The notes under the pieces were generated by a model that made no database searches, had not been told where the DNA came from, and saw only the letters and a program-made list of their open reading frames with translations. A program made the translations under genes and the position numbers. Positions 13,406 through 16,010 of a DNA stretch of 64,000 nucleotides are shown here, piece by piece. Within the stretch, counting starts at the first letter, position 1; each line of letters begins with the position of its first letter. The DNA comes from an uncultured Chloroflexia bacterium. Its GTDB lineage: Bacteria; Chloroflexota; Limnocylindria; Limnocylindrales; CSP1-4. The stretch is from NCBI GenBank assembly GCA_963768655.1, contig CAVYIM010000005.1, positions 352,001-416,000 of the forward strand, read 5' to 3'.

Positions 13406-14059
13406 CTATGGCCGCAGCCAGTCGATGCTGGGCCACTCCTCCTCCGGGATGGCTTCGGGGGCGACCGAGATGCGGGGCTCGTGCGCCGACGACGCAAGAG
13501 GCGCGTCGGGCGCGGCGGGCATTACGGCAGAGGCGGCGGCCACACCCTGAGTCCGGGCCCGCACCGACGCGGCGAGACGGAGCCGGCGCCGCCTCGGGGA
13601 GCCTCCGATCGCGCGGACGGCCTTGTGGACGGCCGCCTCGCGGGCGATGGCGCGAGTCTGTCGCGACGCCCCGGTCCCGCGCCCCGGGACGTCGATCGGT
13701 CCGGGCGCCACCTCGATGGCGACCCGGCCATGGCCTCTCTGCAACGGCATCGCGACCGTCTCGACCGGCCCGTTTTCGGGCGCCCCCTCTGTCGTCGAGG
13801 CGGTCGACGGCGCCGCGTCGCGAGCTCCGGGGATCGTCATGACCCGCAGGGAATCGAGGCGGCTGACGAGTTTGAGCGCCTCCTCGACCTCGCCGGCTCG
13901 GACGTCTCCCTCTGCCACCGCCTGATTCATGCGGAGCCGCCGTTCCTCCGGATCAAGATCGATCAGATCATCCAGGACCTTCTGGCGCCGCGCCTCGCGC
14001 GCAGCCCGATTCCAAAACACTTGTTTGCTCCTGCCGCTGGCGTTGGGACGAACGGCCAA
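13406..14059 (-). CDS. Hypothetical protein
   Basis: 217 aa; helical-looking N-terminal part, low-complexity tail ending EEWPSIDWLRP; TTG start uncertain. Confidence 0.6.
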   Translation of the reverse strand: MAVRPNASGRSKQVFWNRAAREARRQKVLDDLIDLDPEERRLRMNQAVAEGDVRAGEVEEALKLVSRLDSLRVMTIPGARDAAPSTASTTEGAPENGPVETVAMPLQRGHGRVAIEVAPGPIDVPGRGTGASRQTRAIAREAAVHKAVRAIGGSPRRRRLRLAASVRARTQGVAAASAVMPAAPDAPLASSAHEPRISVAPEAIPEEEWPSIDWLRP

Positions 14060-14417
14060 CCGAGAAGGGGAACCGACCTCTGGCAGTCACCAGCGGCGGT
14101 CGAGAATGGAGCGGCTGGATCTACCCGACCAGCCTCCCACGAGGCTGCCACACCGCCCCCCGCCGGACAACGGCTCCGCCCGATTGACGCACCAGCCGGC
14201 ACAAACGGAAAAGTTCTCCGAGTCGCTGGATCAGGCTCAACCAGAGGGAGGCGGCCGGCGGCACCGCCGCTGGCGGCGCCGTCGTCGGACCGCTGACCGT
14301 GCCAGAGATGCTGGCATGCGGGTCCGCCGGCAGCCGCCCCGGCTCGAGCTATCCAGCGGGCACGGGCGGAAAGATACGAGGCGATGGAACGCGTGTTAGC
14401 AAATCTAGAGCATTGCG

Positions 14418-14540
14418 TCAGCGGGGGATGATCGTCGGTCCTCCATCCGCCAGAACGGTCGCTACCGGAAGCAATGCCAGAGCGACTGCCAGGATCCAGG
14501 CCAGAACGAGAGCGCGAAGGCTGAACAAGCGGAGCGACAT
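14418..14540 (-). CDS. Small secreted propeptide (40 aa), candidate signalling peptide
   Basis: Manual translation MSLRLFSLRALVLAWILAVALALLPVATVLADGGPTIIPR*; SD AAAGGAG ~7 nt upstream; basic n-region, hydrophobic core, V-L-A cleavage motif; below the ORF-track size cutoff. Confidence 0.8.
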   Translation of the reverse strand: MSLRLFSLRALVLAWILAVALALLPVATVLADGGPTIIPR

Positions 14541-14610
14541 TGGGCGACTCCTTTCGGGAGGTTGGTCGCCCGCCTGGAACCCGGCCGGCGCGGCTCCGTC
14601 GGCGCCCCGA

Positions 14611-14640
14611 ATCGTACGGAAGGTCCGCCTGCGCGGTCAA
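14611..14640 (-). promoter_or_regulatory. Sigma70-like promoter of the propeptide gene
   Basis: Minus strand TTGACC-N18-TACGAT. Confidence 0.6.
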
Positions 14641-14679
14641 GTGCTACTGAACCTGTAGGCATCCAGGCACCGGCGCCTG

Positions 14680-14708
14680 TTCAAACTGCCTCACAAAGGT
14701 CGTAAACT
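14680..14708 (+). promoter_or_regulatory. Sigma70-like promoter of the XRE-TPR gene (probably leaderless mRNA)
   Basis: TTCAAA-N17-TAAACT, then 6 nt to ATG 14715; no SD. Confidence 0.55.
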
Positions 14709-14714
14709 GTGTCC

Positions 14715-16010
14715 ATGCCTAGAGTCAGCGCCACCCGTCCCAGAGTCGACGATTCCCCACTGGCCAGGAAGATCGGCGAGCGGCTGCGGAAGGCGCGGCT
14801 CGCCGCCGGATTGACCCAGACCCAGCTGGCCGAGCCTCGCTATACCAAAGCCTACGTAAGCGCCCTCGAGAATGGCCTGAGCCGTCCGTCGATGGCGGCC
14901 CTGAACCACTTCGCCGGACGACTGGGGATACCGGCCAGTCAGCTCATCAACGACGAGCCGGCGGCGTGGGCCCGGCTGGAAGCCGACCTCCTCCTGGCCT
15001 GCAGCCGCTGGGATGAGGCGATAGCGGCGTATTCAAACCTTCTGGAGGCCCCCCAGCCCTCGGGCGCGCGGGCAGAGCTTCTGCGCGCTCTGAGCGAGGC
15101 CATGATCCGCAAGGGCCAGGCCGGAGATGCCATCGCGCGCGCGACTGAGTCCGCGGAGTTGTTCCGGGGCGCCCGTCGCGATGCCGACGCCGCCATGGCC
15201 GAGTACTGGGTTGCCGCGGCGCACTACATGCTGGAGAACACGACCGAGGCGAAAGCGATCCTGAACGCGATCCTGGCTCGAGTGAGAAGTGGCCTCAGGG
15301 TCGAGCCGGATTTTCAGGCCCGCATCCTGATGTCACTCTCATCCAACGAGTCGCTCGACGGCAACCACAAGGCGGCTCTGGCATATCTGGAGGAGGTTCG
15401 CGGCCTGGACGCCGATCTGGACGACCGCCGTCGCGCCGCCTACATGTTCGATCTGGCCTACAGCTACCGGGAGACCGGCGACTTCGAAGCAGCGGTTCGG
15501 ACGGGGATCATCAGCCTGGAGCTCTACCGGCGGGCGGAGGCCGAGCGCGAAACCGGGGCGCTCGAGAACGACCTGTCGATGTCGTACCTGGCTCTCGGCA
15601 ACTCAACCAGGGCAGCCGAGATGGCGGCGTCGGCTCGGGCGCGGTTCGAGCGGCTGGACGACAAGTGGTGGCTGGCCTTCGTACTCGACAGTCAGGCCCG
15701 GATCGCACTTGCGCGGGGCTCCGCCGACGAGGCCGCCCAATACGCCGGGCAGGCTCTGGAGCTTGCGCGATTCAACAAGAACGCGAAGGCCTCCGTCGAT
15801 GCCCTCCTGACCCTCGCCCGAGCCCGCACCGCGCTGGGCGACGGGGCGGGCTGTCTCGCCGCCAACGAGCAAGCCGCCGAGCTGGCCCGGCTGGCGGGCA
15901 GTCCGTCACTCGTCCGCAAGTCGCTGCGCGATCTGGCCGACGCGCTGGCGGCTTCCGGCGATCACGAACGCGCCTTTGCCCTGATGCGCGAGGCGCTGAC
16001 GGCGTCCTGA
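14715..16010 (+). CDS. XRE-HTH + TPR-repeat transcriptional regulator (RRNPP-like architecture)
   Basis: IGERLRKARLAAGLTQTQLAEPRYTKAYVSALENGLSRPS HTH followed by all-helical TPR-like repeats (LAYSYRETGDFEAAV, ENDLSMSYLALGNSTRAAE); 431 aa. Confidence 0.9.
   Translation: MPRVSATRPRVDDSPLARKIGERLRKARLAAGLTQTQLAEPRYTKAYVSALENGLSRPSMAALNHFAGRLGIPASQLINDEPAAWARLEADLLLACSRWDEAIAAYSNLLEAPQPSGARAELLRALSEAMIRKGQAGDAIARATESAELFRGARRDADAAMAEYWVAAAHYMLENTTEAKAILNAILARVRSGLRVEPDFQARILMSLSSNESLDGNHKAALAYLEEVRGLDADLDDRRRAAYMFDLAYSYRETGDFEAAVRTGIISLELYRRAEAERETGALENDLSMSYLALGNSTRAAEMAASARARFERLDDKWWLAFVLDSQARIALARGSADEAAQYAGQALELARFNKNAKASVDALLTLARARTALGDGAGCLAANEQAAELARLAGSPSLVRKSLRDLADALAASGDHERAFALMREALTAS

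Follow-up and report, generated by a model that had tools for sequence, protein, structure and literature searches.

A conserved 40-codon gene and its divergent HTH-TPR regulator in Limnocylindria: a candidate RRNPP-like peptide signalling pair in the Chloroflexota

A 64,000-nucleotide stretch of contig CAVYIM010000005.1 (hereafter the window), from an uncultured bacterium of the class Limnocylindria, phylum Chloroflexota, contains the two divergent genes described here: a micro-open reading frame (micro-ORF) of 40 codons at positions 14540 to 14418 of the minus strand, and, on the plus strand, a gene for a regulator with an XRE-type helix-turn-helix (HTH) domain followed by tetratricopeptide repeats (TPRs). 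The micro-ORF is a real, conserved gene, and the two genes stay side by side across a class of uncultured Chloroflexota from soil and peat. We see about an even chance that the two genes form an RRNPP-like loop, in which a short peptide would be exported, cleaved and taken up again, and the regulator would bind it through the TPR domain, altering the occupancy of a conserved 17-bp box that lies between the genes. We favour this reading because the pair survives rearrangement and the turnover of its flanks, because paralogues carry their own distinct peptides and tail types track regulator clades, and because the layout of the peptide fits Sec export and cleavage by signal peptidase I in 84 of 84 distinct sequences.

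Is such a short frame a gene at all? GC-rich genomes are rich in spurious ORFs (100 ORFs of at least 30 residues overlap 9 kb here), and no RNA sequencing run is listed over positions 14300-16010. The micro-ORF might be pictured as a chance frame in GC-rich intergenic DNA, its conservation coming only from promoter or untranslated-region elements of the regulator gene. The comparative data effectively refute this picture, which we hold to be extremely improbable. Upstream DNA was available at 28 distinct places within the genus, and all 28 have a divergent ORF, 39-41 codons long, that starts with ATG behind an AAGGAG-like site and is intact at 27 of them, with a shifted frame at one (L017). 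Across the genus loci, diversity at the three codon positions is 0.358, 0.276 and 0.537, highest at the third, and 313 pairs give a median ratio of nonsynonymous to synonymous rates (dN/dS) of 0.32. All 27 genus loci keep the frame open, and the other five frames have stops in 4-23 of the 27. Beyond the genus, a homologue search in one genome per GTDB species gave 428 relatives of the regulator, and all counts over 80 loci refer to the best 80 of these (48-92% identity). Start, stop, length and Shine-Dalgarno (SD) sequence of the micro-ORF are kept over this whole range of identity. A profile of the peptide matched 66 of the 80 loci at the expected divergent position, with no match elsewhere among 10,869 frames.

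A first-pass annotation of the window had proposed this frame together with its 40 residues, a strong SD sequence, a promoter of its own and a head-to-head arrangement with the regulator at 174 bp, all of which hold on inspection (Table 1); the promoter scan, which picked out a single sigma-70-like site, gave none in 50 shuffles. A few metagenome gene calls correspond to the same peptide, either unnamed or 'hypothetical', except one called a small oxidase subunit, which we take to be a mis-annotation. The ESM Atlas returned only unnamed clusters below a useful score (best 0.86). A short GC stem with a few compensatory changes flanks the ribosome site of the micro-ORF (14541-14575, minus strand). 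We do not claim a hairpin there: the RNAalifold consensus stem has just 4 bp, at -2.65 kcal/mol. Frame-shifted micro-ORFs (L017/L051 and L043) and in-frame stops inside the regulator (L003/L033 and L085), seen in a few genomes, may represent decaying copies or assembly errors.

Table 1. Coordinates of the gene pair and associated features (positions in the window)
Feature	Position	Strand	Basis or remark
Pre-peptide gene (micro-ORF), 40 codons + stop	14418..14540	-	Conserved length, start and stop; dN/dS 0.32
Shine-Dalgarno AAGGAG	14548..14553	-	7 nt 5' of the micro-ORF ATG; AAGGAG-like in nearly all loci
Predicted Sec signal peptide, codons 1-31	14448..14540	-	2 Arg in n-region, uncharged stretch, V-L-A at -3..-1; heuristic counts
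Nine-residue tail DGGPTIIPR, codons 32-40; candidate mature peptide or precursor	14421..14447	-	Tail comparison
Micro-ORF promoter-like site TTGACC-N18-TACGAT	14611..14640	-	Sole hit in 13900-14800; both hexamers conserved in intergenic alignment
17-bp box with partial dyad symmetry, containing the -35 hexamer; candidate operator	14636..14652	+	Intergenic alignment
-10-like TAAACT, 6 nt before the regulator ATG	14703..14708	+	Read from sequence; consensus scan did not call it
Regulator gene, 431 aa, XRE-HTH + TPR	14715..16010	+	Family matches, orthologue alignment, AlphaFold2 (AF2) model
HTH domain, residues 14-78	14754..14948	+	Family matches and AF2 model
TPR superhelix, residues 82-429, about 9 helix pairs of about 40 aa	14958..16001	+	TPR_12, AF2, fold matches
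217-aa ORF, module membership uncertain	13406..14059	-	359 nt downstream of micro-ORF, same strand; no family match

The micro-ORF lies beside the regulator at 74 of the 80 loci: 66 were recognised by the profile at E<=1e-3, including two disrupted copies (L043, L051), and 8 by weaker matches or manually, at the same position. The remaining six comprise one locus without a flank (L101) and five without a micro-ORF. The first-pass annotation had named homologous regulators devoid of an adjacent micro-ORF as grounds for giving up the idea, and had looked forward to neighbours with co-varying tails; the neighbours are there at these 74 loci, and the co-variation was not seen in eight contrasts (see below). 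The NUDIX, DUF72 and ATP-binding cassette (ABC) neighbours present in the window are common to only 16-24 of the 80 loci, so the conserved unit is the pair of micro-ORF and regulator, not the neighbourhood. In one regulator clade (L121, L129 and L133) the micro-ORF is convergent and downstream, still adjacent to the regulator; a box-like stretch upstream of it was read by eye in L129 and L133, and a 5-mismatch scan did not call it.

How widespread is the pair? This genome has one copy of the regulator, and the module is mostly single-copy, chromosomal and syntenic within the genus, where orthologues occur in 27 of the 36 other genomes (52-92% identity). An even draw of 401 Chloroflexota genomes, surveyed at E<=1e-40, yielded 28 with a regulator (own genome included), all in two families of one class; the other 27 carriers are 11 of 23 genomes of the window's family and 16 of 16 of the second family, every other family having none. 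No regulator was found in the 24 genomes of a sister family that were searched (f2, G037-G060; 1.0-1.4 Mb), as would be expected had streamlined lineages lost the module. Among the best 80 relatives, 77 are filed under Chloroflexi or Chloroflexota names (several of them Limnocylindria, Limnocylindrales or CSP1-4) and 3 under other taxa. The first-pass suggestion of a lineage in Chloroflexota, not in Bacillota, is borne out, the class being Limnocylindria.

Statistics on the peptide were drawn from 84 distinct homologue sequences, with the signal peptide judged from our own counts of n-, h- and c-regions and of residues -3 and -1. These peptides are 35-41 residues long, with an n-region of net charge +1 to +7, an uncharged run of 20-24 residues, Ala at -1 in 83 of 84, and Val, Ala or Thr at -3 in all 84. 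By these heuristic counts the product is, as first proposed, almost entirely a predicted Sec signal peptide followed by a short tail. Tails are 6-11 residues long (9 in 56 of the 84 peptides), and rich in Gly (28%) and Pro (18%), with 77 distinct sequences; most close with Pro, preceded by an aromatic or aliphatic residue and optionally followed by Arg, His or Lys. The tails of one clade are six residues long, of the type QTPY[SP]H, and match up with the final six positions of the 9-mers. This suggests that the functional core is formed by the C-terminal 5-6 residues, the Gly run being a putative spacer. At two loci (L108:2703-2823 and L109:2715-2832) the tail starts with Cys right after the -1 Ala, in a lipobox-like arrangement; lipidation of these two peptides is possible but would not be a conserved trait, their nearest relatives having Val or Ala at that position.

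The uncharged run is also long enough for a transmembrane helix. The product could be an uncleaved single-pass membrane mini-protein, with its N terminus inside and its tail outside, that, for example, tethers or modulates the regulator or a neighbouring signalling protein. The positive n-region and the tiny size of the protein would suit such an anchor, as would the membrane-peptide-like look of the homologue annotated as an oxidase subunit and the EAL or histidine-kinase genes found just 3' in 12 of 44 distant loci. An anchor would have no need of the residues at -1 and -3, which are marks of signal peptidase I and stand at a fixed distance from the core. A Pro at about -7 in the window's clade and a conserved aromatic-Pro-basic motif at the C terminus, outside the membrane part, also argue against it, and we consider this alternative quite unlikely.

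Copies of the regulator within one genome provide a further view of the tails. Nine genomes have two copies; a micro-ORF was found at 12 of these 18 loci, and in three of the nine genomes both copies have one, with distinct tails. Tail types track regulator clades on a quick tree with SH-aLRT support only, a pattern that vertical descent alone would also produce. Does any regulator residue follow the tails? We used phylogenetically independent contrasts on this tree, comparing Asp with Gly at position +1 (8 contrasts). The best regulator column tracked the +1 residue in about 2.8 of the 8, a set of contrasts too small to reach significance over the columns tested; similar comparisons for the last residue (Arg versus His) and for Pro-Pro tails gave no signal. 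With loosened criteria, the micro-ORF was not found at 11 regulator loci (5 of the 80 public loci and 6 of the 18 paralogue loci). Five orphan regulators of the second family (L120, L122, L124, L126 and L130) have no micro-ORF and keep a variant of the box; they also share a further conserved stretch of about 20 nucleotides, some 90-120 nucleotides upstream of the regulator.

All 70 of the intergenic regions compared contain the box, 14 of whose 17 positions reach 79-99% identity. A pattern search of the 3.37-Mb genome gave a single exact hit, at the locus itself, and the six one-mismatch copies equal the number obtained with the reversed control (6), so the only visible target of the regulator is the module itself. 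Box and recognition helix (residues 45-53, mean column identity 0.92 over 97 homologues) are conserved together, and we infer that the regulator binds the box. The window's copy forms a good 7-3-7 dyad; over the 70 loci, agreement is limited to 5-6 of 8 mirrored positions, so 'operator' stays a candidate designation. A small stand-alone XRE gene stands between micro-ORF and regulator in 42 of 99 loci (L057-L105, L134 and L136; for example L062:2947-3297). It mostly encodes 104-126 residues and overlaps the regulator start by about 35-85 nucleotides, and the two products tested match HTH_3/HTH_31. In many of the loci carrying this gene the box coincides with its first codons; the window's clade lost the gene yet kept the box, so that the box is a DNA element. 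On the regulator side, GTA-N-ACT is conserved in 22 aligned loci at the -10-like TAAACT, 6 nucleotides before the ATG, which suggests that the regulator mRNA may be leaderless.

The regulator starts at the ATG at 14715, whose Met is common to 24 aligned orthologues; a longer start at GTG 14709 is not supported. Matches to HTH_31 (4.3e-9), HTH_3 (5.6e-6) and TPR_12 (2.7e-19) (above curated cut-off) agree with its initial description as a 431-residue XRE-HTH and TPR protein. The AF2 model has a mean pLDDT of 86.9 and a pTM of 0.73, and over the 97 homologues 6 of 8 TPR repeats show higher conservation in the first helix than in the second. The first-pass annotation had pointed to an Asn in a TPR helix. 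The segment ENDLSMSY does occupy residues 284-291, inside predicted helix 277-293, and N285 is invariant in 24 genus orthologues; the argument is weak, as N285 falls below 93% identity in the 97-sequence alignment.

Structural comparison placed the eukaryotic LGN/Pins proteins first in the Foldseek search with the regulator model, with Rap proteins at ranks 45-50. After VIA re-ranking of the fold matches, LGN (Z 25-26) was above every prokaryotic match, the best of which was NprR (5dbk, Z 22.4, 341 residues aligned; 4gpk, Z 19.0); Rap proteins (Z 20-21.6), MalT domain III (19.5) and many unrelated TPR proteins (about Z 20) followed. The best PDB profile matches were the PlcR HTH (4.4e-8) and the RapH TPR (1.8e-7). 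Of NprR, PlcR and Rgg, which the first-pass annotation had named for comparison, NprR is the best prokaryotic fold, below LGN, the PlcR HTH is one of the two best profile matches, and the Rgg C-terminal profiles gave no match. Pfam and NCBIfam include RRNPP-specific models. In Pfam, only generic TPR_x and HTH_x models matched at E<=10. NCBIfam likewise gave no RRNPP-specific match, the best being NsdA_fam_reg (34.5 bits, cut-off 75) together with HTH-only models. The modelled fold is compatible with an RRNPP-type receptor, not diagnostic of one. A complex prediction with TPR residues 81-431 and the 40-residue pre-peptide scored 0.02 against a mark of 0.32, which is no answer and counts neither way. 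We also considered and rejected a role in defence, PADLOC giving only HTH-level matches.

How does the pair compare with described RRNPP systems? As set out in PMC10075063, RRNPP_detector relies on five in-silico criteria and was run on Firmicutes and viruses. The first is a small pro-peptide gene of 10-100 codons; the micro-ORF has 40, and its 84 homologues encode 35-41 residues. For the Sec and signal peptidase I signal, the layout fits by our heuristic counts, the uncharged run also having the length of a membrane helix. The receptor, expected at about 250-500 residues, has 431; it contains TPRs, with the TPR_12 match and about 9 helix pairs in the AF2 model. The two genes are directly adjacent, 174 bp apart, the small XRE gene intervening in 42 of 99 loci. 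By sequence the pair would thus carry the whole five-point signature, with the Sec signal judged heuristically; such a signature serves to filter candidates in a search and does not prove function.

NprR-NprX of the Bacillus cereus group shares with our pair an N-terminal XRE-type HTH and about 9 TPRs in a protein of similar size, and an adjacent small pre-peptide of Sec type (predicted in our pair), the active part of NprX being C-terminal. Identity between NprR and the Limnocylindria regulator is only 11-13%, with no common specific family profile. The nprX gene lies 3' of nprR and is co-directional, whereas the Limnocylindria genes are divergent and belong to the phylum Chloroflexota. Unlike NprX, the Limnocylindria pre-peptide has almost no pro-region, so a signal-peptidase cut alone would give a 9-mer.

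Rgg-SHP and PrgX-PrgQ show the same head-to-head arrangement of regulator and peptide genes, a regulator site at the peptide promoter (a candidate one in our pair), and a very short precursor whose active end is C-terminal, as it would be here; in Rgg/SHP, the head-to-head genes and the regulator site at the peptide promoter constitute an auto-regulatory loop. The differences lie in the peptide, which keeps a canonical A-x-A-type site in Limnocylindria, and in the regulator, which has no Rgg C-terminal match. According to PMC10075063, no classical signal-peptidase site is present in SHP or PrgQ, which exit via PptAB after processing by Eep. Rap-Phr and AimR-AimP resemble our pair in the length of their pre-peptides (about 40 residues), in the Sec export and processing to signals of 5-6 residues that would also apply here, and in having many paralogous receptor-peptide pairs with different peptides; Rap is also similar in its TPR fold and in the RapH TPR profile. 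Rap has no HTH, and the Rap-Phr and AimR-AimP systems are largely borne on mobile elements, in contrast to the chromosomal, genus-syntenic and mostly single-copy Limnocylindria module. In both, the peptide gene lies 3' of the receptor gene; in size our pre-peptide agrees with Sec-exported pro-peptides of this kind such as PhrC, which has 40 residues. On paper the pair would be RRNPP-like, and by sequence profile it appears to fall outside every described subfamily as well as outside Bacillota.

Under the loop that we favour, the micro-ORF would be transcribed from its own sigma-70-type promoter and translated into the 40-residue pre-peptide, which would be exported by Sec and cut by signal peptidase I after V-L-A. 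Of the resulting 9-mer, trimming might leave the C-terminal 5-6 residues (Thr-x-aromatic/aliphatic-Pro-basic). Re-import of the peptide, probably by an oligopeptide ABC importer, would take place at high density, and the peptide would then bind the cytoplasmic regulator on the concave face of its TPRs. Binding would alter HTH occupancy of the box that overlaps the -35 of the micro-ORF promoter, by activation or by de-repression. The result would be an auto-regulatory loop whose output would be whatever genes are co-transcribed downstream of the micro-ORF. What we observe is that both genes are real and strictly linked, with a signal-peptide-like layout, a conserved box and promoter, and an HTH and TPR architecture.

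Several points weigh against this loop. Export, cleavage, import and binding are all read from sequence. The uncharged stretch, with the length of a transmembrane helix, makes an uncleaved anchor conceivable, and most tails open with a Gly-rich part that resembles a linker, not a specific ligand. Tails differ among regulators that are 80-92% identical, and no regulator column follows the tail changes in the 8 contrasts, which are underpowered. Eleven loci carry the regulator without a detectable micro-ORF, and no regulon is visible beyond the module, the exact box being found solely at the locus. The modelled fold similarity appears generic, LGN standing above NprR and many unrelated TPR proteins near Z 20, and the regulator seems to belong to no RRNPP-specific Pfam or NCBIfam family, even at E<=10. 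Finally, the importer side is ambiguous. The first-pass annotation had asked for Opp in the genome, and six SBP_bac_5 binding proteins are indeed encoded, along with at least two type-I signal peptidases. These are necessary for the proposed cycle and not specific to it: the SBP_bac_5 family is not restricted to oligopeptides, as it also covers dipeptide and nickel binding, and we found no link between its members and the module.

Could the regulator be wired to the micro-ORF without binding its product? XRE regulators commonly control a divergent neighbour. Here the regulator might control the micro-ORF promoter through the box, its TPR domain sensing something else, such as a protein partner or another small molecule, and the peptide might act outside the cell, for example as a signal to a membrane sensor or as an antimicrobial or surface-active peptide. 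The single exact box, at the micro-ORF promoter, would make the peptide gene the visible output; the absence of tail and regulator co-variation, the generic TPR fold match, and the 5 of 44 distant loci in which a same-strand histidine kinase follows the micro-ORF would all agree with this. Yet the sole protein partners kept are the regulator itself and the small XRE protein in 42 of 99 loci; genes for a membrane sensor, a transporter or immunity are not among the conserved neighbours of the micro-ORF in the class. Paralogues with their own tails, and tail types that track regulator clades, weigh against a peptide that is not a ligand, and a free Gly/Pro-rich peptide of 6-11 residues is unlikely to be antimicrobial. 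On balance we place this alternative on the unlikely side.

Returning to the RRNPP-like loop, its output may be sought among the genes 3' of the micro-ORF. In the window, the next one, a 217-residue ORF on the same strand, is possibly co-transcribed with the micro-ORF: no terminator-like site was found 3' of the latter, where the fold z-score is 0.67. Only 12 of 80 loci conserve this ORF, chiefly within the first 77 residues from the N terminus. It has no family match, and the ESM Atlas gave only unnamed clusters below a useful score (best 0.84). Among the 44 distant loci, the next same-strand gene encodes an EAL-domain protein in 7 and a HisKA/HATPase histidine kinase in 5 (for example L058:1603-2703, L064:1603-2670, L082:1429-2721 and L103:1024-2727). 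Some of these genes begin about 50-90 nucleotides past the micro-ORF stop. They may constitute an output of the module; these cases are confined to a few clades, and hence represent few independent events.

In PMC10075063 and PMC12700828, peptide quorum sensing through intracellular TPR receptors is treated as a trait of Bacillota and their mobile elements. Our literature search found no paper placing RRNPP-type peptide signalling in Chloroflexota, the supplementary lists of PMC10075063 lying outside that search. Another kind of system, a peptide of the ComQ/ComX type in a Chloroflexota organism, is the subject of a 2026 preprint.

We propose tentatively, and with somewhat less than even confidence, that signalling by an exported oligopeptide and an HTH-TPR receptor reaches beyond Bacillota in the form of an independent, ancient Limnocylindria family. 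This family would comprise pherotype-like tails (77 among 84 peptides), orthogonal second copies and orphan receptors, with loss in a streamlined sister family. In several lineages it would be wired to downstream genes for a cyclic di-GMP phosphodiesterase or a histidine kinase, and abundant uncultured bacteria of peat, soil and freshwater would then switch lifestyle by peptide quorum sensing. If this is true, a deep-branching phylum, abundant in peat, soil and groundwater, would join those with peptide-based cell-to-cell signalling. The system would be a very compact and easily tested one, made of one 40-codon gene, one regulator and one 17-bp box, and the short peptides that occur naturally could be used to probe organisms so far uncultured.

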